64,000 nt of DNA, from NCBI GenBank assembly GCA_963824225.1, contig CAWGOF010000003.1, positions 3,040,847 to 3,104,846 on the forward strand. Reading direction: 5' to 3'. Position numbers and translations under genes: made by a program. Source of the DNA: an uncultured Acidobacteriota bacterium. Lineage in GTDB: Bacteria; Acidobacteriota; Polarisedimenticolia; Polarisedimenticolales; Polarisedimenticolaceae. This document shows, piece after piece, positions 2,455-16,451 of this stretch. Below the pieces are notes generated by a model that was not told where the DNA came from, made no database searches, and saw nothing but the letters and a program-made list of their open reading frames with translations. Positions within the stretch are counted from its first letter, which is position 1, and each line of letters begins with the position of its first letter.

Positions 2455-2964
2455 TCAGCGGCGGCGCAGGAGCCACAGCAGGCCGAGCCCCACGGCGAGC
2501 GCCCCCACGAGCAGGGCGATACGGCCCATCGCCGGCGCGCTGATCTGCATCACGCCCTCGGTCGTGACGAGGCGGATCTGGTCGCCGCCGCTCAAGTTGA
2601 ACGTGAAGGTGCCGCTGCTTATCGTCGTCAGCACGCCGCCGTCGAACCGGATCGTCTGCTGGATCAGCCCGCCGACGCACGCCAGGTTGTACTCGTACGT
2701 GTGGGACTGGCTCGTCTGGCCGCCACCCGAGAGCACGGTGGCGGAGAGCGACGCCTGGCGTCCGGCGCACGGTCCCGTGTTCTGCCACGCGTAGAGCGTC
2801 TGCGGCCGCTTGCTACAGAACCAGTCGGTGTTCCACGTGCCGGCGATCGCGTCCTCGACCTCGCTCCCGTCGCTTCCCGTCGGGATCGTGCCGTTACCCG
2901 CGACGACCGGGACCGCGGCGAAGACGGATGCCACCAAGCACAGCCCGATGCCCCAAGCTTTCAT
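2455..2964 (-). CDS. secreted hypothetical protein with C-terminal TM helix + RRR tail
   Basis: 169 aa; N-terminal signal peptide MKAWGIGLCLVASVFAAVPVVAGNG; C-terminus ...SAPAMGRIALLVGALAVGLGLLWLLRRR resembles exosortase/MYXO-type C-terminal sorting signals. Confidence 0.5.
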   Translation of the reverse strand: MKAWGIGLCLVASVFAAVPVVAGNGTIPTGSDGSEVEDAIAGTWNTDWFCSKRPQTLYAWQNTGPCAGRQASLSATVLSGGGQTSQSHTYEYNLACVGGLIQQTIRFDGGVLTTISSGTFTFNLSGGDQIRLVTTEGVMQISAPAMGRIALLVGALAVGLGLLWLLRRR

Positions 2965-3139
2965 GAGCCCCTCCAGCGGTCCCCGCCGCAGCGCGCGGCC
3001 GCCTCACCGCGACTGCCTGTTTAGTACCCGCAGCGGGCGCTCGAGGCAAGCGCGGGATTCGTCCGTGTGCTGCGGGCGATGCCGCAACCGGCGAGCAACC
3101 CGGGAAGTAGCTTAGGATTGAACCGCTTACGGGGGAAGC

Positions 3140-5416
3140 GTGGAAGACGACCGTCGAGAGTCGGCGCCGGCCGGAGACCGGACCTGGGTCCAGGGCTCGG
3201 GCGCGAGCGCCGCGCGCACGGACGAGACGATCGGCAACTACCGTGTGCTGCGCACGCTCGGCGAGGGCGGAATGGGCCTGGTCTACGAGGCCGAGCAGGT
3301 CCGCCCGGTCCGCCGGCGCGTGGCGCTGAAGGTCATCCGCACCGGGCTCGAGGGGGACGACATCCGCCTGCGCTTCGAGTCCGAGCGCCAGGCGCTGGCG
3401 CTGATGGATCACCCGGCGATCGCCCGCGTGTTCGACGCCGGGGTCACGGCCGAGGGTCGACCGTTCTTCGCCATGGAGCTGGTCGACGGCGTGCCGATCA
3501 CGGAGCTGTGCGACCGCGAGCGGCTCGACCTGAAGGAGCGGTTGCGCCTCTTCGCCCTGGTCTGCGACGGCGTCCAGCACGCGCACCAGAAGGGGATCAT
3601 CCACCGCGACATCAAGCCATCGAACGTCCTGGTCGCCGGGTCGGGCGCCGAGCGCTCGATCAAGATCATCGACTTCGGTGTGGCCAAGGCCACGACCGAG
3701 CGCCTGACCGACCGGACGTTCATGACCGAGATGGGCCAGCTCGTCGGCACGCCGCAGTACATGAGCCCCGAGCAGGCCGACATGCGCGGCCTGGACATCG
3801 ACACGCGGACCGACGTGTACCTGCTCGGCACGCTGCTCCACGAGCTGCTCACGGGCTGCCTGCCGTTCGACCCGCGGCTGCTCCACGAGCGCGGCCTGAC
3901 CGAGTACCGCCGGCAGGTGGTGGAGGTCGACCCGCTGCGCCCGAGCGAGCGGCTGGCCAAGCTCGAGCCCGCGGCGGCGCGCGAGGCCGCGCAGCTCCGC
4001 TCGACCGAGCCACTGGCGCTCGTGCGCGCGCTGCGCGGCGATCTCGACGCGATCACGGTCAAGGCGCTCGAGAAGGACCGGGCGCAGCGCTACGCCTCGG
4101 CGTCCGAGCTCGCCGCAGACGTCGGGCGGTTCCTGCGCAACGAGCCGGTGACGGCGACGCCGCCGAGCGGCCTGTACCAGCTGCGGAAGTTCGCCCGGCG
4201 CCATCGCGTGGGCGTCGCCTTCGCCTCGGTCGTGGTCGTGCTGCTCGCCGGTTTCGGCGTGTCGATGGCGGTCTACGCCTCGGCCCTCGCGCGGGCGCGC
4301 GATCGCGCGGAGAGCCAGACCCAGGCCGCGAACCAGGTGGCGGGCTACCTGGTCGACCTGTTCGACAGCAGCGATCCGGAGAAGGCGGACCGCTCGACCG
4401 TGACCGTCCTCCAGGTCCTGCACCAGGGCCGGGACCGGATCAAGGACCTCGCCGGGCAGCCGGTGCTCCAGGCCCGGATGCTGCGCACGATGGGCGAGGT
4501 GTACACGAGCGCCGGATTCCTCGAGGAAGCGCGCCCGCTCCTCGAGGATGCGCTGCGCATCAGGCGGGAGCAGCTAGAGCGCGAGCAACAGGGGGTCACC
4601 GCGCTCGACGTGGCGGAGGCCGAGACGAGCCTGGCCGGCCTGCTCGTGCAGCTCGGGGAATACGACCGCGTGCAGTCGCTCTACGCGGACGCGCTGGCCA
4701 CGCGCGAAGCCGAGCTCGGTCCGAACGACCTCGAGGTCGCGCGGAGCATGACCAACCTGGCGAACATCTTGGGCCTGACCGGCCGGGACGCAGAGGCGGA
4801 GGAGCTGCACCGGAAGGCGTTCGAGATCCGCGAGAGAACGCTCGAGCCGGACGACCCCGAGATCGCGACGAGCCGGGCGAACCAGGCGATGCACCTCGAG
4901 CGCGCGGGCAACTACGCCGAGGCGCGACCGCTCTACGAGCGAGCGCTGGCCACCTGGCGCCGGGTCGACCCGCCGAACGTCCCGCGGACGCTCGAGCGGC
5001 TCGGTTGCGTCGCCGAGGCCGAGGGCGACCTGCCGACCGCCGTTCGTTACCACGAGCAGGCGCTCGAGCTGCGCCGCTCGATCTACGGGAGCGATCACAG
5101 CGACGTGGCCAAGAGCCTGCTCGCGCTCGCGACGCTGAGCGCGCGGCAGGGCGACACGGCTCGGGCGACGGCGCTCCACGACGAGGCGCACGCGATCTAC
5201 GAGCGCGCGCACCAGCTCGACACGCCGATCGTCCAGTACCAGGAGGCGGGCTACCTGGCGACGGTCGGCCGCACGGCCGAGGCCGTGGAGCTTCTGCGCC
5301 TGGCGGTCGTCGACGGCGGCTACGCGAACGCGAACGAGCTCCTGCGCGACGTGCGCTTCCGCCCGCTCGCGGCAGATCCGGGGTTCCAGGCCATCGTCGC
5401 CGCCGCCAAGAAGTAA
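3140..5416 (+). CDS. Ser/Thr protein kinase with C-terminal TPR repeats
   Basis: 758 aa; GEGGMGLVYEA...ALKVI...HRDIKPSNVLV...DFGVAK...PQYMSPE kinase motifs, TM segment, then multiple TPR-like repeats (AEAEELHRKAFEIRE... etc.). Confidence 0.85.
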   Translation: MEDDRRESAPAGDRTWVQGSGASAARTDETIGNYRVLRTLGEGGMGLVYEAEQVRPVRRRVALKVIRTGLEGDDIRLRFESERQALALMDHPAIARVFDAGVTAEGRPFFAMELVDGVPITELCDRERLDLKERLRLFALVCDGVQHAHQKGIIHRDIKPSNVLVAGSGAERSIKIIDFGVAKATTERLTDRTFMTEMGQLVGTPQYMSPEQADMRGLDIDTRTDVYLLGTLLHELLTGCLPFDPRLLHERGLTEYRRQVVEVDPLRPSERLAKLEPAAAREAAQLRSTEPLALVRALRGDLDAITVKALEKDRAQRYASASELAADVGRFLRNEPVTATPPSGLYQLRKFARRHRVGVAFASVVVVLLAGFGVSMAVYASALARARDRAESQTQAANQVAGYLVDLFDSSDPEKADRSTVTVLQVLHQGRDRIKDLAGQPVLQARMLRTMGEVYTSAGFLEEARPLLEDALRIRREQLEREQQGVTALDVAEAETSLAGLLVQLGEYDRVQSLYADALATREAELGPNDLEVARSMTNLANILGLTGRDAEAEELHRKAFEIRERTLEPDDPEIATSRANQAMHLERAGNYAEARPLYERALATWRRVDPPNVPRTLERLGCVAEAEGDLPTAVRYHEQALELRRSIYGSDHSDVAKSLLALATLSARQGDTARATALHDEAHAIYERAHQLDTPIVQYQEAGYLATVGRTAEAVELLRLAVVDGGYANANELLRDVRFRPLAADPGFQAIVAAAKK

Positions 5417-5478: not shown

Positions 5479-7395
<1,917 letters not shown>

Positions 7396-7520
7396 GGGTC
7401 GGCAGCTCTCCCCTGCAGGTGGCGTCGGCGGAGCCAGCTTCCCGGGGCTGGTCCCGGCGTCCCCTAATCTACCGCGGTCGGGCGCGGGCGGCGGAACCGC
7501 GGGGTCGAGGACGCGAAAAA

Positions 7521-7569
7521 AGCGCGGAGGCGGATTCCCCCTGAGGTCACCGCCTCCGCGAACAGGGGA
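7521..7569 (-). terminator. intrinsic-terminator-like hairpin in leader between sigma54 promoter B and the activator gene
   Basis: minus-strand reading: GCGGAGGCGG-(16 nt loop)-CCGCCTCCGCG followed by CTTTTTTCGCG; same stem sequence as hairpin at 14712-14745. Confidence 0.55.
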
Positions 7570-7628
7570 GTGTGGATGAAGCGACGTCGATGGTTGCGGC
7601 ATTTCGAATTCCCTCGGCTCCTGGAAGC

Positions 7629-7644
7629 AGCAAGGCAAATGCCA
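7629..7644 (-). promoter_or_regulatory. sigma54 (-24/-12) promoter B
   Basis: minus-strand TGGCATTTGCCTTGCT = GG-N10-GC matching TGGCAC-N5-TTGCW consensus; ~235 nt upstream of activator start. Confidence 0.6.
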
Positions 7645-7695
7645 GAGCGCCACGCGCGCAAAACCCAGCGAATCCTTGGCTGCGGGGCGGGGAGC

Positions 7696-7711
7696 CTATC
7701 CGAACGGATAG
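7696..7711. promoter_or_regulatory. palindromic upstream-activator-site-like motif CTATCCG-AA-CGGATAG
   Basis: perfect palindrome 52 bp upstream of promoter B; same motif at 8541-8556 and 14576-14589. Confidence 0.5.
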
Positions 7712-7756
7712 TCGGGAGGCGGGGGGCTAACCGGTGAGATAGTCCAGAAAGGCGAA

Positions 7757-7790
7757 GGCGGGATCCTTACCGGGTCCCGCCTTCGCGCGC
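7757..7790 (-). terminator. hairpin terminator following the peptide array
   Basis: minus-strand GGCGGGACCCGGTAAGGATCCCGCC followed by TTCGCCTTTCTGG, ~25 nt after stop of peptide copy 1. Confidence 0.5.
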
Positions 7791-7813
7791 TCGAGAATCG
7801 ATGCTCGTCTCCA

Positions 7814-7888
7814 TCAGCGGATGTAGCTCTTGCGGGGCGGAAGGGCGACGGACTCGGCACCGGCTTTGATCTGGCTCTTGGTCTTCAT
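7814..7888 (-). CDS. 24-aa peptide, copy 1 of 6 (MKTKSQIKAGAESVALPPRKSYIR)
   Basis: ATG at 7886-7888 preceded by GGAGAGA; TGA stop; unit of a 100-bp tandem repeat. Confidence 0.6.
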   Translation of the reverse strand: MKTKSQIKAGAESVALPPRKSYIR

Positions 7889-7935
7889 GGCATCTCTCCG
7901 TTTTGCGTTCGGCGTTTGTGTTCGTTCGTTCCATC

Positions 7936-8010
7936 TCAGCGGATGTAGGTCTTGCGGGGCGGAAGGGAAACGGACTCGGCACCGGCTTTGATCTGGCTCT
8001 TGGTCTTCAT
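7936..8010 (-). CDS. 24-aa peptide, copy 2 (MKTKSQIKAGAESVSLPPRKTYIR)
   Basis: ATG 8008-8010 preceded by acGAGGAGaacgcc; TGA stop. Confidence 0.6.
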   Translation of the reverse strand: MKTKSQIKAGAESVSLPPRKTYIR

Positions 8011-8034
8011 GGCGTTCTCCTCGTCTGTTCGGCG

Positions 8035-8109
8035 TTAGCGGATGTAGCTCTTGCGGGGCGGAAGGGAAACGGACTCGGCACCGGCTTTGATCTGGCTCTT
8101 GGTCTTCAT
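8035..8109 (-). CDS. 24-aa peptide, copy 3 (MKTKSQIKAGAESVSLPPRKSYIR)
   Basis: ATG 8107-8109 preceded by GAGGAG 8 nt upstream; TAA stop. Confidence 0.6.
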   Translation of the reverse strand: MKTKSQIKAGAESVSLPPRKSYIR

Positions 8110-8134
8110 GGCGTTCTCCTCGTTTCGTTCGGCG

Positions 8135-8209
8135 TTAGCGGATGTAGGTCTTGCGGGGCGGAAGGGAAACGGACTCGGCACCGGCTTTGATCTGGCTCTT
8201 GGTCTTCAT
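8135..8209 (-). CDS. 24-aa peptide, copy 4 (…PPRKTYIR variant)
   Basis: ATG 8207-8209 preceded by GAGGAG; TAA stop. Confidence 0.6.
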   Translation of the reverse strand: MKTKSQIKAGAESVSLPPRKTYIR

Positions 8210-8234
8210 GGCGTTCTCCTCGTTTCGTTCAGCG

Positions 8235-8309
8235 TTAGCGGATGTAGCTCTTGCGGGGCGGAAGGGAAACGGACTCGGCACCGGCTCTGATCTGGCTCTT
8301 GGTCTTCAT
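8235..8309 (-). CDS. 24-aa peptide, copy 5 (MKTKSQIRAGAESVSLPPRKSYIR; K8R variant)
   Basis: ATG 8307-8309 preceded by GAGGAG; TAA stop; one substitution (ccggctctga) changes K to R. Confidence 0.6.
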   Translation of the reverse strand: MKTKSQIRAGAESVSLPPRKSYIR

Positions 8310-8334
8310 GGCATTCTCCTCGTTTCGTTCGGCG

Positions 8335-8409
8335 TTAGCGGATGTAGCTCTTGCGGGGCGGAAGGGAAACGGACTCGGCACCGGCTTTGATCTGGCTCTT
8401 GGTCTTCAT
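8335..8409 (-). CDS. 24-aa peptide, copy 6 (first transcribed; MKTKSQIKAGAESVSLPPRKSYIR)
   Basis: ATG 8407-8409 preceded by AGGAGGcccacg; TAA stop. Confidence 0.6.
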   Translation of the reverse strand: MKTKSQIKAGAESVSLPPRKSYIR

Positions 8410-8452
8410 CGTGGGCCTCCTTTCTTTCTTGTTTGGCCACGCCTCCTGATAG

Positions 8453-8468
8453 AGCAATGGCGATGCCA
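8453..8468 (-). promoter_or_regulatory. sigma54 (-24/-12) promoter C driving the six-peptide array
   Basis: minus-strand TGGCATCGCCATTGCT (GG-N10-GC), ~45 nt upstream of peptide copy 6 ATG; nearly identical to promoter A at 14620-14635. Confidence 0.65.
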
Positions 8469-8540
8469 GGCTCAGAAGCGGGAAAACCGCTCGATCGCTA
8501 TCCGTTAGGTTCTCGCGCGGGGGTCGCGCGGCGGTTCGAG

Positions 8541-8556
8541 CTATCCGAGCGGATAG
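8541..8556. promoter_or_regulatory. palindromic UAS-like motif CTATCCG-AG-CGGATAG (plus half-site CTATCCG at 8498-8504)
   Basis: perfect palindrome ~73 bp upstream of promoter C, position typical for bEBP binding. Confidence 0.5.
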
Positions 8557-8562
8557 CGCGAC

Positions 8563-10713
8563 CTACGGATGGGCGATCACGAGGAGCGTCGGCGCGCGCT
8601 CGAGCACGCAGGTCATGCAGCGGCGCAGGCTCTCGGGGTCGAGCGCGGCGAAGCTCTCGTCGAGCACGACGAGCTCGGCGCGCTGGAGCAGCGCGCGGGC
8701 GATGTACACGCGGCTGCGCTCGCCGTGCGAGAGCTGCCAGCCGGTCTCGCCGACCATCTGCAGCAGGCCCGCGGGCATGCGATCGAGGAGCGGGCCGAGG
8801 CCCAGCTCGCGGCACACCTTGTCCGCCTCGGCCAGGTCGTCGACGTGGGCCGGCCAGCCGCGGCCCATCAGCAGGTTGAACGCGAGCGTTCCTGTGAGCA
8901 CGTGGTTCTCGTGGAACTGCGGCGCCGTGGCGATGCGCGAGCGCCAGGCCGGGATGCCGAGCGTCGCCCGATCGAGGCCGCCGAGGAGCACGAGCCCCGA
9001 TCCGGGCTGGCGCAGGCCGGCGACGATCGAGGCCAGAGTCGACTTCCCGCCGCCCGATGGCCCCTCGAGCAGCACGCGGTCGCCGGGATCGATGCGCAGC
9101 GAGCAGCCGCGGAGCACGGGCTCGCCGCGGTCGACGTAGCGGAACACGACGTCCGACGCCGAGACGAGCGGCCCCGCCGCGTCCGCCGCGGCGGCGCCCT
9201 TCGCGCGCTCCGCGGCGGCGGTCGCCGCAGCGGCGGCGCGGGGCGGGCGGACGATCTGGGGTCGCGCGGCCGCGCGGAAGAGCGGGGCGATCGCGCGCCA
9301 GGCCACGATCGCCCCGGCGACGTGCCGCGCGCCGCCGGCGAGGCGCGAGAGCGCCTGGTGCGCCAGGAACACGCCGCCGAGCCCGATCGCGAGCTCCTCG
9401 ACCGACGCCGTGCCGCGCACGAACGCCGGCGCGAGGCCGGCGAGACCGACGGCGAGCCAGCCGGTCGGGATCGCGAGCGACAGCGTGGCGCCCGTGCGAT
9501 CGAGATGCCGCGACCGCGCGAGCAGCCGATCGAGCGCCTCGTCCTCGCCCGCATGCCAGCGCGAGCGCGACTCCTGGGCCAGGCGCGTGCGATGGCCGAC
9601 GAGCCGCTCGACGAGGTCGTGCGTCAGGCCGACGCGCGTCCCGGTCCAACCCTCGCGTGCCCCGAGGTAGCGCAGGCCGACGAGCAGGGTCAGCGCGACC
9701 CAAGAGAACAGCGCGAGGACGTGGAGCACGCCCCCGGCCCCGAACGCCAGGACCAACGCCGCGGCGAAGATCTCGATCCCGGCGAGGATGCCGACGAGAC
9801 CCCCGCTGATGGCGAGCGACTCGACCGCTTCGGACTCGATCACCTGGCCGAGGAGCTGGCCCACGCCGCGATGCCGGATCTCCTCGGGCTCGAGGCGCAG
9901 CGCGGCGGCGAGCAGCCGGCGCTTGATCAGACCGCCCGCGGCGAGGGCGACGAGGCCCTGGCACCAGCTCGCGAGCATGCCCAGCGGAACGAGCGTCAGG
10001 AGGATCAGGGCCCAGGCGACGAGCCAGCCCGCATCGAGCCGGCCCTCGAGCGCGCCGCGGCCGATCGTCCACCACGACAGGATCCACAGCGCGCAGCTCG
10101 ACGCGTAGGCCAGGACCAGGCCGCCGAGGGCGCGCGGGAGGCCGATCCCGCGCAGCTGGTCGAGGAAGTCGGCCGACGGCGGAAGCGCGATGCTCCACAC
10201 GCCGTCGATCGGCTCCGTGCCGAGCCGCTCGCCGAGAAGCGCGTTCACCGAGCGCGCGCGGCGACCGTGTGGCACCCCGGCGCTCTCGAGGAGCCGGGCG
10301 ATCTCCACGCGCGTCGAGGCTTCGAGCGCTGAGACCTTCTCGCCGAGGACGTCGTCGATCGCGACCCACACGCGCGATCCGTCGGGCGCGAGGAGCTCGA
10401 CGCGGCGGCGGCTCCCGCGCAGGACGACGAGAAGCGCGGCGACAGCAGCGCCGATGCGCACGAGCGCCGGTCCGCTCGTGCGGAGCCACCGCGCGAGCTC
10501 GGCGTGCGACAGGCCGAGCTCGTCGATCTCGATGCCGATCCAGGCCGCGGCCTCGTCGAGCCAGCGCTCGAGCGCTTTGCGGTCGCGCGGCGGAGGGCCC
10601 GCATCCCCGAGCGCCCGCGGCTCGAGACCGGCGTCCGCGGTGAGCGCCTCGAGCGCATCGCCCAGGCGGTCGAACGGCCAGGCGTACGCCGCGATCCCCG
10701 TCGCGCGGCTCAC
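8563..10713 (-). CDS. ABC transporter, fused permease/ATP-binding protein (no peptidase domain)
   Basis: six-TM region then ABC ATPase: GPSGGGKST Walker A, LSHGERSRVYIARAL signature, VLDESFAALD Walker B; probable GTG start overlapping stop of upstream PCAT gene (GTGA). Confidence 0.7.
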   Translation of the reverse strand: MSRATGIAAYAWPFDRLGDALEALTADAGLEPRALGDAGPPPRDRKALERWLDEAAAWIGIEIDELGLSHAELARWLRTSGPALVRIGAAVAALLVVLRGSRRRVELLAPDGSRVWVAIDDVLGEKVSALEASTRVEIARLLESAGVPHGRRARSVNALLGERLGTEPIDGVWSIALPPSADFLDQLRGIGLPRALGGLVLAYASSCALWILSWWTIGRGALEGRLDAGWLVAWALILLTLVPLGMLASWCQGLVALAAGGLIKRRLLAAALRLEPEEIRHRGVGQLLGQVIESEAVESLAISGGLVGILAGIEIFAAALVLAFGAGGVLHVLALFSWVALTLLVGLRYLGAREGWTGTRVGLTHDLVERLVGHRTRLAQESRSRWHAGEDEALDRLLARSRHLDRTGATLSLAIPTGWLAVGLAGLAPAFVRGTASVEELAIGLGGVFLAHQALSRLAGGARHVAGAIVAWRAIAPLFRAAARPQIVRPPRAAAAATAAAERAKGAAAADAAGPLVSASDVVFRYVDRGEPVLRGCSLRIDPGDRVLLEGPSGGGKSTLASIVAGLRQPGSGLVLLGGLDRATLGIPAWRSRIATAPQFHENHVLTGTLAFNLLMGRGWPAHVDDLAEADKVCRELGLGPLLDRMPAGLLQMVGETGWQLSHGERSRVYIARALLQRAELVVLDESFAALDPESLRRCMTCVLERAPTLLVIAHP

Positions 10714-13379
10714 GCGTTCTCTCGGACGCGCCCGTCGTCCAGGCGAAACCTGCGCCACGAGCGCGTGCTCTCGAGCCCGTCCCGCAGCTCGCGCTCGGTG
10801 TCGAGGAGCGCGCCGAGGCGCGAATCGGGCTTGCGTGTCAGCTCTGAGGGTGCTCCGTCCTCGACGATCCGTCCGTTCTCGACGACGAGGACGCGCTCGA
10901 AGGATGCGGCGTCCGAGACGTCGTGGGTGATGCACACGAGCGTCGCCGCGCGCCATTCCTTGCGCACGGCGGCGAGGAGCCTTGCGCGCTGCGCCCGATC
11001 GAGGCCGCGGAACGGCTCGTCGAGGATCGCCAAGCGCACGTCCTCGCGCAGGAGCGCGCGGCCGAGGCGCACGCGCTGGCCCTCACCGCCCGAGACGAGC
11101 GCCCCGCCTTCGCCGAGCGCGGTCTGCAGGCCGTCGGGCAGCCGCTCGACGAGCTTGCGCATCTCGGCCACCTCGAGCGCGCGGCCGACGGCGGTGCCGT
11201 CGGCGCCGGGCCCGCCGTACTGCAGGTTGTCGAGGAGCGAGCGGTTCCAGATCTGCACGGCGGGATCGACCCACGCGGTTCTCTCGCGGAGCCAGGCGAT
11301 GCGCGGGGCATCGAGCGGAGCGCCGTCGACCGTGATCGCACCTGAAGACGCCCGGTGCCAGCCGAGGAGCAGGCCGACGAGCGTCGACTTGCCGGCGCCC
11401 GACGGGCCGACGATCGCCACGTGTTCGCCGGCTCCGATGTCGAGCCGCACGTTGGTCAGGATCTCGTGGCCCGCAGCGCGCACGCTCACGCCGTCGAGCT
11501 CGATCCGTACGCCAGAAGAAGAAGTGGGGTCAGGTCTCGGGGTCAGGTCTTTCGACCTGACCCGCAGACCTGACCCCACCTCGTCCTCCATCTCCTCCGG
11601 CGCACCGAGCGGCTCGAGGAGGCGGAGCGTGAGGTTGCGCACCTCGGGGTACTGGCGCAGCGCGAGAGCCAAGCTCTGTCCGAGCGCCGGGAGGTGCAGG
11701 GCCCAGAAGACGAGGAGCAGGACGACCGACGCATCGCCGCCACGCGCGGCATGGGCCAGGACGATCCACGCCGCAAGTCCGAACCCGCACACGCCCCCGA
11801 GCGCCTCGACGCCGACGAGGGCGCTCTGAAGCGCGACGCCGGCGCGGGCCCACTTCGCGAGAAGCGACTCGTGCTCGCGCCTGACGGCGCGCTCGGCCCG
11901 ATGGCAGCGGATCGGGACGAGGCCGAGAAGGGCGTCGAAGTAGAACCGGCTCAGCGCGCCGACGTGCGTCCGCACGCGCATGTCGCGCTCGACGAGGAGC
12001 GGCTGCGCGCACAGGGGCAGCGCGACCGAGACGCTCGCCAGGATGCAGGCCAGGGGCGCGCTCGCCGGGTCGAGCCATGTGATCCCGGCGACGGTGAGCA
12101 CGAGGCCGAAGAGCGCATGGAGCGCCTGGCGTCCGATCTCGGGCAGCTCGCGAATCTGATGCAGGCTGTGGCTGCGCTCGGCCATGTCCGACGCGAGACG
12201 GCTGTGGAAGTACCGGTCGGGCAGACGCGGGATCTTGCGCAGGAACGCGACGCGCAGGCGCAGCTCGAGCTTGCGCCCAAGTCTCAGGACACCGGCGGCG
12301 AGCGGGATCTCGAGGAGCGCGAGCGCGGTAAGGAACAGCAGCACGGCCGCCGTCGCCGCGAGGCGCTGCCGCGCAAGCCCGAGGTCCGACCACACGTGCA
12401 GCAGGCCGCGAAACACGAGCGCCTCGACGAGCACGCCCGCGGCGGCGAGGCCGAGCGCGGAGACGAGGACCGTCGGCGCAAGGAGGCCGTCCGCGCGCAG
12501 CAGGCGCAGCAGCTCGCGGCCCGCTCGCGCGGGCCGCTCCTCGAGCGCCGAGGCGAGCTCCACGGAGGGGTCAGGTCTCGGGGTCAGGTCTTTCGACCTG
12601 ACCCCGTTCACCCTGACAAGCACGATGCCGCTCGCGGCGACCCGCTCCTGCCCCTCGGGCCCGGCCTCGGCTGGCTTGACCGACCAGCATCCGGCCGGGA
12701 TCGCCGCACCGTCGGCGTTCTCGACGAGCGCGTCGAGGACGCGCAGACACTCGGTCCCGCGCGCCAGCCCGCCCGACCGCACGATCGCGGTCACCGCCCG
12801 CGTCGCCGCGTCGAGCGTGGCGAGCTTGCGCCAGCCCTCGTCGGTCGACGCTGCGCCGATGCGCTCGGCGATCGTCGTGCGCTCGAGCCCCAGGGCCGAA
12901 AGCCTCGAGCCGAGCGGCTCGAGGAACGCAGGTGAGCCGGCCCACTCGCGCCAGTACGCCGCATCGACCACCGACTCGTGGATGTAGGCGTCGTCGAGGA
13001 GCCTCTCCCCCGAGATCCACTTGCGCCCTGTGGCGGGGTCCATCACCTGAACCAGGCCGCCGTGCTTGCGCCAGGCCACGACGAAATGCGTGGCTCCGCT
13101 CGGCGAGCGCACGACGAGCAGCGCCGGGAGCTGCGCCCGACCTGGGAGGAGCAGATGATCGGGCGGGATCAGGATCTGCTCGGCCTCGAGCCCCGCGCGC
13201 TGCGCGACCTCTTCGAGCGTGTCGATCGACGTCCCGTCGAGGTCGGTCTGGCACGCCTCGCGCAGCCGGCCGTAGCTCGCGTGGATCCCGAACCCCTGGA
13301 GCAGGCACGCCAGGGCCGCGGGCCCGCAATCCATCGCCGACGTCTGGACGATCTCGGGCGCGAAGTACCGCGGGATCAT
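10710..13379 (-). CDS. peptidase-containing ABC transporter (PCAT): N-terminal C39 peptidase + permease + ATPase
   Basis: 889 aa; N-terminal QTSAMDCGPAALACLLQGFGI C39 cysteine motif; TM domain; GPSGAGKST Walker A, LSGGEGQRVRLGRAL signature, ILDEPFRGLD Walker B; two in-frame palindromic repeat insertions. Confidence 0.8.
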   Translation of the reverse strand: MIPRYFAPEIVQTSAMDCGPAALACLLQGFGIHASYGRLREACQTDLDGTSIDTLEEVAQRAGLEAEQILIPPDHLLLPGRAQLPALLVVRSPSGATHFVVAWRKHGGLVQVMDPATGRKWISGERLLDDAYIHESVVDAAYWREWAGSPAFLEPLGSRLSALGLERTTIAERIGAASTDEGWRKLATLDAATRAVTAIVRSGGLARGTECLRVLDALVENADGAAIPAGCWSVKPAEAGPEGQERVAASGIVLVRVNGVRSKDLTPRPDPSVELASALEERPARAGRELLRLLRADGLLAPTVLVSALGLAAAGVLVEALVFRGLLHVWSDLGLARQRLAATAAVLLFLTALALLEIPLAAGVLRLGRKLELRLRVAFLRKIPRLPDRYFHSRLASDMAERSHSLHQIRELPEIGRQALHALFGLVLTVAGITWLDPASAPLACILASVSVALPLCAQPLLVERDMRVRTHVGALSRFYFDALLGLVPIRCHRAERAVRREHESLLAKWARAGVALQSALVGVEALGGVCGFGLAAWIVLAHAARGGDASVVLLLVFWALHLPALGQSLALALRQYPEVRNLTLRLLEPLGAPEEMEDEVGSGLRVRSKDLTPRPDPTSSSGVRIELDGVSVRAAGHEILTNVRLDIGAGEHVAIVGPSGAGKSTLVGLLLGWHRASSGAITVDGAPLDAPRIAWLRERTAWVDPAVQIWNRSLLDNLQYGGPGADGTAVGRALEVAEMRKLVERLPDGLQTALGEGGALVSGGEGQRVRLGRALLREDVRLAILDEPFRGLDRAQRARLLAAVRKEWRAATLVCITHDVSDAASFERVLVVENGRIVEDGAPSELTRKPDSRLGALLDTERELRDGLESTRSWRRFRLDDGRVRENA
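11525..11578. repeat. palindromic repeat family 1, copy 2, in-frame inside PCAT gene (encodes ...EVGSGLRVRSKDLTPRPDPTSSS...)
   Basis: ggggtcaggtctcggggtcaggtctttcgacctgacccgcagacctgacccca located between permease and ATPase domains without interrupting the ORF. Confidence 0.8.
12567..12605. repeat. palindromic repeat family 1, copy 3, in-frame inside PCAT gene (encodes ...GVRSKDLTPRPDP...)
   Basis: ggggtcaggtctcggggtcaggtctttcgacctgacccc between C39 peptidase and permease domains. Confidence 0.8.
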
Positions 13380-14521
13380 GGCGCAGCGCCGGCGGCGCGC
13401 AGGAGCAGCACGGCCGGTGAGACGCGCTCGACCTCGACCTCGATCGTGCCCGGAAGGCCGTGCTCGAGCGGCAGCTCGGGGTTCGATGCGCCGTCGACTT
13501 CGAGCTCGACGCGCACACGCCCGTCGCGCAGCTCGGTCGACATGTGCGCGACGCGCGCGCGCAGGCTCCCGTACTGGCTCGACGGGAAGCTCGAAAGCCT
13601 CAGCCGCGCCGGCTGTCCCGGGCGGATCCGGCCCAGCGCGGCCTCGGGCGCGAACTCGGCCACGACGTGCAGATCGCCCGAGCCGAGAACCACGCCGAGC
13701 CGGTCGCCGGCGTGCACGAACGCCCCGGCCTCGATCGGTGCGGCCTCGACGATCGTCCCGCGCACGGGCGCGCGGATCGACTTCTCCTCGGCCTCGCGCT
13801 CGAGACGGCCCGCAGCGACCTTCCCCGCACCGATCTCGCCCAGGACGCGCGATACCTCGCGGCGCAGCTGCTCGATCCGCGCCGCGCGGTCGCGCTCGCG
13901 CGTCTGGAGCTCGGGCTCGAGTCGCGCAGCCGCGAGGCGCAGGCTCTCGGCGCTGGCGTTGGCCCGCTCGGCCTCGGCCGCCGCGCGCTCGTACTCGGCG
14001 TCAGACAGGAGCCCCGTGTCGTGCAGCCGCTTCGCGCGATTCAGCGCCTGGGCCGCGGCGGTCGCGGTGACGCTCGCCTCCGTGTGCCGCGCTCGCGCCT
14101 CGGCCAACCCGGCGCGCGCGGCCTCGCGCTCCTGGCCGAGCGCCTGCTCCTGGATCCGGATCTCGCCCTCGAGCGCGCTGAGCTGCGGCGCGAGCGCCCC
14201 CGTGCGCGTCCGCGCCTCCTCGATCCCCAGCCGCTCGGGCTCGGTCGCCAGGGCCACGAGGACCTCGCCCTCCTCGACGGCGCGGCCGAGCGCGAGCGCG
14301 CTCGACACGACGCGCCCCGACACCGGGGCCTCGAGCGCGTGGGCCGCGCGGTCGAGCTCGACCCGCGCCGCCGTGCTCACCTCGTGCACGGCCACGCGGG
14401 CCAGGAACAACCAGGCGGTCCAGGCGGCCAGGAGCACGGCGCCCAGGCCGAGCGCGAGCACGGTTCGGCCGTGCCCGTCGCCCGCGAGACCCCGCATCGT
14501 GCGTGGGAACTCTTCGGACAC
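13376..14521 (-). CDS. HlyD-family membrane fusion/secretion protein
   Basis: 381 aa; N-terminal TM helix, long coiled-coil (AEYERAAAEAERANASAESLRLAAARLEPELQ...), C-terminal beta-barrel region; stop overlaps PCAT ATG (ATGA). Start GTG 14519-14521 or ATG ~14497. Confidence 0.75.
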   Translation of the reverse strand: MSEEFPRTMRGLAGDGHGRTVLALGLGAVLLAAWTAWLFLARVAVHEVSTAARVELDRAAHALEAPVSGRVVSSALALGRAVEEGEVLVALATEPERLGIEEARTRTGALAPQLSALEGEIRIQEQALGQEREAARAGLAEARARHTEASVTATAAAQALNRAKRLHDTGLLSDAEYERAAAEAERANASAESLRLAAARLEPELQTRERDRAARIEQLRREVSRVLGEIGAGKVAAGRLEREAEEKSIRAPVRGTIVEAAPIEAGAFVHAGDRLGVVLGSGDLHVVAEFAPEAALGRIRPGQPARLRLSSFPSSQYGSLRARVAHMSTELRDGRVRVELEVDGASNPELPLEHGLPGTIEVEVERVSPAVLLLRAAGAAP

Positions 14522-14545
14522 GGCCCGACTCTACCGCACTCGCCG

Positions 14546-14589
14546 ATCGGATAGTCGGGCGGCCTCGAGGCAATCCGATCGGATAGGCC
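14546..14589. promoter_or_regulatory. UAS-like palindromes (CCGATCGGATAG; ATCCGATCGGATAG) between HlyD operon start and sigma54 promoter A
   Basis: two copies of the TATCCG-N2-CGGATA-type palindrome, 30-75 bp upstream of promoter A. Confidence 0.45.
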
Positions 14590-14619
14590 GCGCCGGGGAG
14601 AGCCCCGTTTTTCGGCTGG

Positions 14620-14635
14620 CATCGCCGTTGCTATT
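14620..14635 (+). promoter_or_regulatory. sigma54 (-24/-12) promoter A
   Basis: TGGCATCGCCGTTGCT on plus strand; one mismatch from promoter C. Confidence 0.6.
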
Positions 14636-14646
14636 TCTCTTGGCCG

Positions 14647-14756
14647 AGGCCGAACGAGAAAGGACGCGAATCAGACCTACCCCCTGCGGCACAGCGAAAA
14701 CCCCCCTGCAGGCGGAGGCGGAGCGAGCAAGGTTCCGCCTCCGCGTCTTTTTGTTT
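14647..14756 (+). ncRNA. candidate sigma54-dependent small RNA or terminated leader (~110 nt)
   Basis: predicted TSS ~12 nt past promoter A; no ATG-initiated ORF; ends in perfect 10-bp stem GCGGAGGCGG/CCGCCTCCGC (14712-14745) + GTCTTTTTGTTT. Confidence 0.35.
14712..14756 (+). terminator. intrinsic terminator hairpin
   Basis: GCGGAGGCGG-agcgagcaaggtt-CCGCCTCCGC followed by GTCTTTTTGTTT. Confidence 0.6.
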
Positions 14757-14768
14757 AGACTCTCGCGC

Positions 14769-16451
14769 ATGATTCGCACCCTTATCCGCCTGACGATCGT
14801 TGCGCTCGCAGTTCCGGTCGCCGCCCAGCACGCGCACCACGCCGAGCTCGGCGACGATCGCGCGTTGCAGGACGACCCACGACTCGCCGAGGGCCAGATC
14901 GCGCCGCTCCTCGACGGCCTGGGGGAGCATCACCACAAGGTGACGACGACGTCCGAGCAGGCCCAGCGGTTCTTCGACCAGGGGCTCAAGCTGGCCTACG
15001 GGTTCAACCACCGGGAAGCCCTGCGCGCGTTCAAGGAAGCGGCGCGGCTCGATCCCGACTGCGCGATGGCGTACTGGGGCTGGGCCCTCGTCCTCGGCCC
15101 GAACATCAACCTGCCGATGCCGAAGGACGCGGTGCCCCAGGCGTGGGACGCGATGCAGCTCGCGCTCGCGAAGCGCGACCGCGCAAGCGAGCCCGAGCGC
15201 GCGTACATCGACGCCCTGGCCCAGCGCTACACGAAGGACCCCGACGCCGACCGACTGTCGCTCGATCGGGCGTACGCCGACGCGATGCGCGAGCTCCACA
15301 AGCGCTACCCCGAGGACACGGACGCGGCGACGCTCTTCGCCGAAGCGTTGATGGACGTGTCGCCGTGGAACTACTGGACGCGCGAGGGCAAGCCACGCGA
15401 GAGCACGCTCGAGCTCGTGGCCACGCTCGAGGACGTGCTACGGGCCGACCCGACGCACGAGGGGGCGCTGCACTACTACATCCACGCGGTCGAGGCGGTC
15501 GACGCGGCCCGCGGTGCGGCGGCGGCCGATCGCCTGCGCCCGCTCGCGCCGGGCGCGGGGCACCTGCTGCACATGCCGTCCCACCTGTACATCCAGCTCG
15601 GCCGCTACGCCGACGCGTTCGAGGCCAACGCCCTTGCCGCGCGCTCGGACGAGACCTACGTCACCCAGTGCCGGGCCCAGGGGATCTACCCCCTGAACTA
15701 CTTCCCGCACAACCTGCACTTCCTGGCCTGGGCCGCGTTCTACCAGGGTCGCGGCAAGGAGGCGCTCGAGGCGGCCAACAAGGTGCGCGCCGGCGTGCCC
15801 GCCGATCTCTCGGGGAACGACTGGGGGTTGTTCGAGACGTTCCTGAGCATGCCGCTCTACACGATGGTGCGCTTCGGGATGTGGAACGAGATCCTGGCCG
15901 AGCGCGAGCCGCCGAAGGAGCGGAAGCTCTCGACCGGCGTGTGGCACTACGCCCGGGGCCGCGCATACGCGGCGACGGGCCGCGCGTCCGAGGCCAAGCG
16001 CGAGCTCGCGCGCGTCGAGGCGCTGGCCGAGGACCCGGCGAGCGCCGACGCGCTCGTGGGCTACGCGAACGCGGCGCGCCTGCTCGACATCGCGCGCTAC
16101 GTGCTCGCGGGCGAGATCGCCTCGGCCGAGAAGCGCCACGCCGAGGCGGTCATGCATCTCGATCGCGCGACACGGCTCGAGGACAGCCTGGCCTACAACG
16201 AGCCGCCCGACTGGTACTACCCGGTGCGCCACTCGCTCGGCGCGGCGCTGCTCGAAGCGAAACGGCCGGTCGAGGCCGAGGTCGTGTACTGGCAGGACCT
16301 GCGCAAGTACCCCGAGAACGCCTACGCGCTCTACGGCCTGTGGCGCGCGGCCGAGGCCCAGGGCAAAACCGCGGACGCCGAGGAGTACGAGTCGCGCTAT
16401 CGCGCCGCGTGGTCCAAGGCCGACGCGCCGCTGAAGTCGTCGCGGTACTAA
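14769..16451 (+). CDS. secreted hypothetical protein, TPR-like helical repeats
   Basis: 561 aa; signal peptide MIRTLIRLTIVALAVPVAAQHAHHA; helical repeat-rich; no recognised catalytic motif. Confidence 0.5.
   Translation: MIRTLIRLTIVALAVPVAAQHAHHAELGDDRALQDDPRLAEGQIAPLLDGLGEHHHKVTTTSEQAQRFFDQGLKLAYGFNHREALRAFKEAARLDPDCAMAYWGWALVLGPNINLPMPKDAVPQAWDAMQLALAKRDRASEPERAYIDALAQRYTKDPDADRLSLDRAYADAMRELHKRYPEDTDAATLFAEALMDVSPWNYWTREGKPRESTLELVATLEDVLRADPTHEGALHYYIHAVEAVDAARGAAAADRLRPLAPGAGHLLHMPSHLYIQLGRYADAFEANALAARSDETYVTQCRAQGIYPLNYFPHNLHFLAWAAFYQGRGKEALEAANKVRAGVPADLSGNDWGLFETFLSMPLYTMVRFGMWNEILAEREPPKERKLSTGVWHYARGRAYAATGRASEAKRELARVEALAEDPASADALVGYANAARLLDIARYVLAGEIASAEKRHAEAVMHLDRATRLEDSLAYNEPPDWYYPVRHSLGAALLEAKRPVEAEVVYWQDLRKYPENAYALYGLWRAAEAQGKTADAEEYESRYRAAWSKADAPLKSSRY

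Follow-up and report, generated by a model that had tools for sequence, protein, structure and literature searches.

The Qrr small RNAs (sRNAs) are about 100 nt long and terminated, work in a cell-cell signalling circuit and often exist in several paralogous copies. GlmY depends on sigma-54, resembles GlmZ and acts as a decoy for the protein that targets GlmZ. The 3' end of an mRNA that doubles as an sRNA, or evolves into one, is a known pattern as well, and in the pyrBI leader a start codon opens a frame that crosses the terminator hairpin. Qrr1 of Vibrio is described as having a promoter that depends on sigma-54 and the bacterial enhancer-binding protein (bEBP) LuxO (PMC10162802). In Pseudomonas, the sRNAs CrcZ and CrcY have a sigma-54-type promoter that is activated directly by the bEBP CbrB; the sRNA gene lies beside the bEBP gene, sometimes with paralogous copies (PMC8871633). 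In this study, we describe a candidate new sigma-54-dependent sRNA of unusual, well-documented origin in an uncultured Acidobacteriota bacterium (assembly GCA_963824225.1, contig CAWGOF010000003.1, positions 3,040,847 to 3,104,846 of the forward strand). The whole stretch of 64,000 nt that was analysed is called the window, and positions are counted from its first letter. The candidate occupies about 14539-14756, between the divergent genes for an HlyD-family adaptor (minus strand, 13376-14521) and a 560-aa TPR protein (plus strand, ATG at 14769). It borders a peptide-export cluster on the minus strand, which includes a peptide operon and the gene of a sigma-54 activator. We refer to this interval as the TPR-side unit and to its paralogue on the minus strand (7516..7711) as the activator-side unit; both lack a peptide open reading frame (ORF) and are called ORF-less below.

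The TPR-side unit shares its general design with the Qrr sRNAs, here predicted from sequence: a short terminated RNA, a sigma-54 promoter, a bEBP and paralogous copies. It differs from them in that the Rfam search was negative and no conserved seed-target pairing was found, and in that the activator of this locus has FHA and GAF inputs, not a receiver domain. The likeness to CrcZ lies in the activator-side unit, which stands directly upstream of the presumed bEBP gene. However, CrcZ, a protein sponge, is about 400 nt long and carries repeated CA-rich motifs; the RNA predicted here has about 110 nt and one C-rich motif, and the two share no sequence or structure similarity and no Rfam hit. The TPR-side RNA would repeat, in the same sense, both untranslated parts (5' and 3') of the peptide mRNA, and a decoy role like that of GlmY is conceivable, but there is no sequence relation to GlmY. 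The locus also resembles the sRNAs derived from a 3' untranslated region (3'UTR), as the CCCCUG-hairpin-U-tail is the 3'UTR of the peptide operon in two related loci (L188 and L204; related loci carry L numbers throughout) and has its own promoter in the window. In contrast to that pattern, the coding region is wholly lost here and the unit has moved or been duplicated to the cluster borders. NcS25 of Burkholderia was set aside as a precedent, because its target porin, and not the sRNA, carries the sigma-54-like promoter.

The TPR-side unit is made up of the following elements:

14539..14554, no strand assigned: enhancer site 1 (upstream activating sequence, UAS), CTCGCCGATCGGATAG, a degenerate copy of the palindrome CTATCCG-N2-CGGATAG
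14571..14586, no strand assigned: enhancer site 2 (UAS), CAATCCGATCGGATAG, one mismatch to the palindrome, 30 nt 5' of the promoter
14594..14612, plus strand: small GC hairpin with T5, between the enhancer sites and the promoter
14617..14632, plus strand: sigma-54 (-24/-12) promoter TGGCATCGCCGTTGCT, TGGCAT-N5-TTGCT, one mismatch to TGGCAC-N5-TTGCW
14633..14668, plus strand: segment that aligns with the peptide-operon 5'UTR and contains a decayed Shine-Dalgarno sequence
14643..14756, plus strand: predicted non-coding transcript of about 110-114 nt, its 5' end from the promoter geometry and its 3' end from the U-run
14681..14686, plus strand: first CCCCTG, likened by eye to the last peptide codons plus stop
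14703..14708, plus strand: second CCCCTG, a C-rich motif 3 nt before the hairpin, invariant in every ORF-less copy
14712..14744, plus strand: intrinsic-terminator hairpin GCGGAGGCGGAGC-GAGCAAG-GTTCCGCCTCCGC, fold -29.5 kcal/mol, z = -3.9
14746..14756, plus strand: U-run TCTTTTTGTTT (UCUUUUUGUUU), 9 of 11 U

The promoter has canonical spacing, with GG at 14618-19 and GC at 14630-31, and its geometry places the transcription start site (TSS) at about 14642-14644. Four sites in 64 kb match the consensus TGGCACNNNNNTTGCW with no more than one mismatch, where 0.76 would be expected; a count of four was not reached in any of 100 shuffles. Three of the four fall in the export/peptide cluster. Sites of the CTATCCG-N2-CGGATAG type are shared by all three of these cluster promoters, 30-100 nt upstream of each; the CGGATAG half-site occurs 13 times in the window (4.7 expected), with 7 of the 13 at the same three promoters. 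A GTTTT tract at the position of the small hairpin and T5 (14594-14612) is common to the aligned promoter copies, and this element is possibly a DNA bend or an IHF-type site.

The terminator stem, GCGGAGGCGGAG(C)/(G)TTCCGCCTCCGC, has 13 pairs, 10 of them G-C, around a 7-nt loop, and its core is GCGGAGGCGG/CCGCCTCCGC. With the U-run behind it, this GC-rich hairpin is the strongest terminator-like site in the 60 kb scanned. The exact stem pair GCGGAGGCGG/CCGCCTCCGC was found twice in the window against zero expected, each time downstream of a sigma-54 promoter, and a chance origin of this arrangement of promoter and stem is unlikely. A preliminary description of this DNA had spoken of a perfect 10-bp stem; the GC stem is there, and its length was understated, since it extends to 12-13 pairs. 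The distance of 17 nt given there from the T-run to the TPR gene is correct when counted from the T5 core and shrinks to 12 nt if the T-rich run is taken in full. Together, CCCCTG, three further nucleotides, the hairpin and the U-run make up a 3' module of 54 nt.

From the inferred TSS (about 14643) to the hairpin there is no ATG or GTG in the window sequence, and in the alignment with L001 no reading frame is kept, as the indels are not multiples of 3. The interval 14643-14756 is thus probably a non-coding RNA, and a discrete transcript is predicted. The sigma-54 promoter, the interval of about 110 nt, the terminator and the lack of an ORF, all named in the preliminary description, are read directly in the sequence and are backed by the statistics given above.

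The relation of this unit to the cluster depends on the following features:

7752..8556, minus strand: peptide operon, with enhancer at 8541-8556, sigma-54 promoter at 8468-8453 and six 24-aa ORFs at 8409-7814
7786-7752, minus strand: terminator of the peptide operon, GCGAAGGCGGGA.../...TCCCGCCTTCGC, by folding
7516..7711, minus strand: activator-side ORF-less unit, with enhancer at 7696-7711, promoter at 7644-7629, hairpin with identical stem at 7559-7524 and U-run at 7521-7516
7570-7563, minus strand: CTCCCCTG in the activator-side unit, just upstream of its hairpin
5479..7395, minus strand: FHA-GAF-AAA+ sigma-54 activator (bEBP), Sigma54_activat E = 6e-75 plus FHA and GAF

The peptide operon consists of six tandem repeats of about 100 nt (7814-8409), which encode the peptides MKTKSQIKAGAESVSLPPRKSYIR and variants, MKTKSQI[K/R]AGAESV[S/A]LPPRK[S/T]YIR. 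We found the leader M[KR]TKxxIKAG again, with other C-terminal parts, in L153, L188, L204, L206 and L004 (Bryobacterales). Alignments showed that the promoter, the 5'UTR and the 3'UTR/terminator of the TPR-side unit are homologous to those of the peptide operon. Specifically, the stretch from the promoter to the Shine-Dalgarno sequence aligns with the peptide-operon 5'UTRs of the window, L153, L188, L204 and L206; the Shine-Dalgarno sequence itself has decayed to GAAAGGACG in the window, compared with AAAGGAG in L001, L098 and L002. At the other end, CCCCTG-N3-GCGGAGGCGG with its hairpin and U-run is the peptide-operon 3'UTR/terminator in L188 and L204, where the second CCCCTG also lies in the 3'UTR. 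Furthermore, a decayed peptide ORF, MKFKSRMAQPLPYSKRSIPR, is still present in the activator-side unit of L204. These alignments at both ends, together with the residual ORF, indicate that both short units are peptide cassettes minus their coding part. By eye, the window stretch AATCAGACCTAC also aligns with the peptide start ATGAAGACCAAG, and the first CCCCTG would correspond to the ATC CCC TGA of the L188 and L204 peptide genes. Since the TPR-side unit lacks a start codon, and none of its frames shows a peptide motif, it is to be regarded as a derivative of the peptide operon and not as one of its members. This relation was missed in the preliminary description; judged by these alignments, the unit derives from the peptide operon and belongs to the export cluster, not to the TPR gene.

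The hairpin of the activator-side unit follows about 70 nt after the third sigma-54 promoter and has exactly the same 10-bp stem. Perfect enhancer palindromes stand at 7696-7711 and 8541-8556, and also before the orthologous activators in L002, L005, L207 and L208, so that the palindrome accompanies orthologous activators down to 46-61% identity (L005, L208). In L004, a metagenome-assembled genome (MAG) of Bryobacterales, related repeats part the activator gene from a divergent sigma-54 promoter with a peptide whose leader reads M-R/K-T-K-x-x-I-K-A-G. As the FHA-GAF activator is encoded in the cluster, it is taken for the cognate bEBP, which would bind these sites, and is presumed to be the regulator of all three promoters. 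By these shared elements, the TPR-side unit is one of three predicted members of a local sigma-54 regulon.

To follow the unit among relatives, the TPR-side comparison was traced via close relatives of the TPR protein. The activator-side comparison used L207, L153, L212, L204/L205 and L206 (activator identity 96-77%), in which orthologous units were found in six loci of five lineages. The TPR-side unit is present between the HlyD and TPR genes in L001 and L098 (both with 84% TPR identity) and in L002 (78%), and each of these copies has the enhancer sites, TGGCAT-N5-TTGCT, CCCCTG and the hairpin. The promoter pattern TGGCA[CT]-N5-TTGCT is intact in all ORF-less copies examined. The identities are as follows:

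Window versus L001: four-fold sites 0.71, promoter 0.88, 5' part 0.83, 3' module 0.95
Window versus L002: four-fold sites 0.59, promoter 0.88, 5' part 0.60, 3' module 0.74
Activator-side unit: four-fold sites 0.62-0.71, 3' module 0.80-0.94, 5' part 0.42-0.47 (unalignable, lengths 31-127 nt)

In the TPR-side copies the 3' module (0.74-0.95) is conserved above the four-fold sites (0.59-0.71). Overall, these comparisons point to promoter and 3' module being conserved above the level of synonymous sites, with a decayed middle. The preliminary proposal of a sigma-54-dependent, independently terminated short non-coding transcript is therefore supported as a prediction, its elements being kept in three independent relatives and in a paralogue beside the cognate activator.

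The unit is missing in L003 (TPR 78-79%) and L206 despite the neighbourhood of HlyD and TPR genes there, and in L204 the HlyD gene of the cluster has neither a TPR gene nor the unit beside it. Taken with the TPR identities, this distribution suggests one gain and at least one loss of the TPR-side unit. In L206, a long inverted repeat, ggggacgttttcct...aggaaaacgtcccc, fills the intergenic region between TPR and HlyD genes (about 2915-3010). A pattern scan of metagenomes was loose: among the 120 matches listed, three were real (L098, L153 and L188), so the tally of copies is not complete. In 2.1 Mb of other loci, a covariance model built from the 3' module detected no further copies.

We also examined the pairing of the hairpin across its family of 13 copies. 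Cells of the alignment were paired in 93.6% of cases, compared with 45-58% when the 3' partner was slid. Pair 28-59 is G-C in 7 copies, G-U in 3 and A-U in 3, and pair 35-52 is G-C in 6, A-U in 2 and U-A in 1. Two stem pairs have thus changed on both sides in a compensatory way, indicating that pairing is maintained, within a small sample of 13 copies. The covariation in homologous loci that the preliminary description had named as a check is accordingly present in these two pairs, and lacking in the 10-bp stem core, which is invariant.

Other explanations of the hairpin were tried and rejected. A dispersed repeat or mobile element (repetitive extragenic palindrome or miniature inverted-repeat transposable element, REP/MITE) does not fit an exact stem with just two occurrences in 64 kb, each behind a sigma-54 promoter. 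The flanking GACTCT words are not a target-site duplication, since they are two divergent -10-like boxes. A known RNA family was not found by Rfam at E <= 10 on 14400-14900, where CC3552 (E = 2.4) matched as a generic hairpin only. The activator-side copies have a conserved hairpin loop, CUnAGGGGG, whose sequence complements CUCCCCUG further upstream. A pseudoknot between CUCCCCUG and the loop CAGGGGG was rejected for the TPR-side unit, because this complementarity is kept in the activator-side copies only. A 3-nt connector makes a full pseudoknot sterically doubtful.

Taken together, these data lead us to favour, with moderate confidence, a stand-alone, activator-dependent sigma-54 unit that descended from the peptide operon and lost its coding part. 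According to this model, the activator (5479-7395, minus strand) would bind the CGGATAG-type sites at 14539-14586 and would then activate sigma-54 RNA polymerase at TGGCAT-N5-TTGCT (14617-14632). Transcription would start near 14643 and stop at the hairpin and U-run (14712-14756). The product would be an RNA of about 110 nt in which the 5'UTR of the peptide mRNA is joined to its 3'UTR/terminator, with no translatable ORF. Its induction would coincide with that of the six secreted peptides and of the paralogous RNA encoded just upstream of the activator gene. Within the RNA, the 54-nt 3' module is most likely the functional part, and would have the seed-plus-terminator layout of a trans-acting or protein-titrating sRNA. 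We are less certain that such a stand-alone RNA has an actual regulatory role.

Several observations weigh against a functional stand-alone RNA. No conserved target complementarity was found in the cluster genes, to which the search was confined. Rfam 15, including Qrr, GlmY and Acido-type RNAs, gave no match at gathering thresholds in the whole window, and the best local hits had E of at least 0.25, far under the gathering score. The support from covariation is thin, given that the stem core does not vary and that 6 of 500 shuffles reach the observed covariation score. Only three independent lineages carry the TPR-side copy, and its loss in at least one related lineage (L003) marks it as dispensable. 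In addition, the conservation of promoter and terminator could come in part from gene conversion among the three paralogous modules of each genome. One potential target did appear at the ribosome-binding region of the activator gene (window position 7415), where CAGGGGAG is a perfect complement of CUCCCCUG. It is absent from L207, L153, L204 and L206, and anti-Shine-Dalgarno pairing with the activator mRNA was rejected: L207, though 96% identical, has the complement of 8-10 nt deleted, and the other loci lack it too.

The alternative that survives best is a non-functional relic, namely a peptide cassette turned pseudogene. Its promoter and terminator would still look intact because the loss was recent or because gene conversion from the active peptide operon renewed them, and any RNA made from it would have no role. 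We consider this unlikely, while acknowledging that the unit does derive from the peptide operon by ORF loss, that its middle part decays freely, that it is absent in L003 and L206 and without a conserved target, and that three paralogous promoter/terminator modules within 7 kb could exchange sequence. However, the -24/-12 elements, the enhancer half-sites and the 3' module are kept where synonymous sites are near saturation (0.59-0.62 at four-fold sites). Two ORF-less units are maintained in parallel, the activator-side one across its six loci and five lineages. Furthermore, CCCCTG is strict in the ORF-less units, whereas the terminators of active peptide operons (window, L207, L153 and L206) lack it or have it in decayed form, which argues against simple conversion from them.

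The next two explanations involve the genes on either side of the units, for which we recorded the following features:

14769..16451, plus strand: gene for the 560-aa TPR protein, a neighbour outside the unit
14756..14761, plus strand: -10-like TAGACT, 7 nt before the TPR ATG, also in L001, L098 and L002
14528..14535, minus strand: -10-like GGTAGAGT of the divergent HlyD/export operon, GTAGAGT motif, in seven loci
13376-14521, minus strand: HlyD-family adaptor, start GTG at 14521
10710-13379, minus strand: C39-peptidase ABC transporter, an export gene
8563-10956, minus strand: second ABC transporter, maximal ORF, true start probably near 10700 by comparison with L204
7466..7473, minus strand: -10-like GGTAGATT, between the activator-side terminator and the activator start

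The TPR protein belongs to a widespread family (about 565 aa, 60-65% identical across many contigs) and has an N-terminal hydrophobic segment, in agreement with the preliminary description of a secreted TPR-like product. We found no Shine-Dalgarno sequence at the TPR start. GTAGAGT lies upstream of HlyD in the window, L001, L002, L003, L098, L204 and L206, and the -10-like boxes are 6-7 nt from the HlyD GTG and the TPR ATG. A promoter of its own and a leaderless mRNA are therefore probable for the TPR gene, and the HlyD mRNA (GTG 14521) is probably leaderless too. This suggests that leaderless mRNAs with a TAGAnT-type -10 box occur in this lineage; a scan for TTGACA/TATAAT found no site in the first 40 kb and one at 40-60 kb. 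The -10-like box before the activator is kept as GGTAGATTAGGGG or GGTATAGAGTA in L153, L207, L212, L204 and L206, and its variants include GGTAGATT or GGTATAGAGT. Judged by its own box, the TPR gene is a neighbour only and would lie outside the regulon.

A terminated leader or attenuator would let partial read-through boost the TPR gene here and the activator gene at the paralogue, giving positive feedback like that from glnAp2 into glnLG, and a ribosome crossing the hairpin may modulate read-through at the paralogue. The position of both units directly upstream of genes on the same strand fits such a leader, as does the weak U-run of the L002 unit (TTCTTTCC). For the TPR-side copy, however, the leader has no start codon and no conserved frame, and the hairpin is very strong with a U tail of 9/11. 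Both minimum-energy and centroid folds, which are thermodynamic predictions, gave no alternative fold competing with the terminator. With no Shine-Dalgarno sequence and a -10-like box 7 nt before the start, a read-through RNA would be poorly translated. Moreover, L003 and L206 have a TPR gene with no such unit in front of it, so that the linkage is not obligate. This, together with the -10-like box of the TPR gene itself, favours a stand-alone RNA over an attenuator of the TPR gene. The attenuator offered as an option in the preliminary description is thus not supported for this gene, given the relatives that lack the unit, the separate -10-like box and the want of an anti-terminator fold.

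A likeness to a pyrBI-type attenuator is confined to the activator-side copy; the TPR-side unit has no start codon. At the activator-side copy, an ATG-started frame (7395-7602, minus strand) crosses the hairpin in all five lineages and reads SP-A/V-RGGG-D/E/S-LRG...PPP-R/H-F across it. In four of the five, no stop codon intervenes before this frame joins that of the activator ORF. Counted from the TCC codon of CTCCCCTG, the activator start lies 174, 150, 144, 150 and 180 nt away in the window, L207, L153, L212 and L204, respectively, and each value is a multiple of 3. A Shine-Dalgarno-like sequence precedes the ATG in the window/L207, L153 and L212, and in L204 the ATG overlaps the stop of the residual ORF. 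Against this, the frame is broken in L206, and the extension shows mostly non-synonymous changes between the window and L207, as judged by eye. In GC-rich DNA such an open frame may arise by chance; alternatively, it may reflect ribosomes that translate across the terminator. Taken for both units, the leader explanation appears to us improbable.

A mixed arrangement would make both ORF-less units working parts. The TPR-side RNA would be a mimic that titrates a protein or RNase of the peptide mRNA, and the activator-side unit would be a translated leader with positive feedback through an N-terminally extended isoform of the activator, the passage of a ribosome deciding between this feedback and termination. 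We rate its chances as low, on a level with those of a leader at both units.

A role at the level of DNA is less probable still. Here, the enhancer sites, with or without bound holoenzyme, would put the divergent HlyD/ABC operon under the control of the activator or titrate the activator, and the RNA would be a by-product of which the terminator disposes. Enhancer site 1 (14539-14554) does lie about 4-20 bp from the -10-like box of HlyD (14528-14535) and overlaps its expected -35 region. The relatives without the unit are also without enhancer sites at HlyD, a co-occurrence in favour of such a role. However, a DNA-level role fails to explain the conserved -24/-12 promoter, CCCCTG and the loop and stem sequence of the hairpin, and the activator-side unit has the same RNA module in another DNA context. 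That the unit encodes a small protein, or extends the TPR protein at its N terminus, can be dismissed as very improbable, even with a TPR frame open far upstream (mechanical ORF 12978-16451) and a decayed Shine-Dalgarno sequence, because no ATG or GTG follows the inferred TSS, the indels between window and L001 are not multiples of 3, the TPR homologue of L001 starts at the same ATG, and open frames are expected at about 70% G+C.

Further observations concern the cluster and its activator. The 24-aa peptide has no match in NCBIfam, and the exporters are only weakly like the NHLP bacteriocin export cassette, far below the cut-offs. When the genome collection was searched with the activator, the best match had 54% identity, in a Bryobacterales MAG, and no close relative was found; its named relatives are all Acidobacteriota. 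A Ser/Thr protein kinase with C-terminal TPR repeats is encoded at 3140-5416 on the plus strand, convergent with the activator gene. The two genes are paired likewise in L206 and L207, and the regulon may be controlled by phospho-threonine signals to the FHA domain.

In L208, L209 and L210, where the activator is 61% identical, the palindrome CTATCCGATCGGATAG and a sigma-54 promoter TGGCACGGCGATTGCC stand before other cargo, with ORFs of 61, 164, 190 and 312 aa and no Pfam hits in place of the peptide and export genes. L211 (P0127) is a different low-GC locus with similar TGGATAG repeats and no hairpin module. Within the C39-ABC gene of the window, a palindromic repeat of about 38 nt, GGGGTCAGGTCTCGGGGTCAGGTCTTTCGACCTGACCC, occurs twice in frame (11526-11588 and 12564-12606). 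It encodes (V)RSKDLTPRPDP in two linkers where comparison with the L204 orthologue shows gaps or variation, and looks like a small repeat element tolerated inside coding sequence.

If the TPR-side unit is only a relic, it is an ordinary finding. If the stand-alone RNA is made and active, it would add a riboregulator to an uncharacterised circuit of a poorly studied, mostly uncultured lineage, in which a Ser/Thr kinase and an FHA-GAF sigma-54 activator are combined with tandem secreted peptides and a C39/ABC/HlyD exporter. The finding also carries a warning for annotation: where a long ORF is called through such a hairpin, as with the 710-aa activator in L204, the call may be an artefact. As the candidate it is, the unit would then be a clean case of the birth of an sRNA gene, in which a peptide cassette drops its ORF and keeps its enhancer, sigma-54 promoter and terminator.

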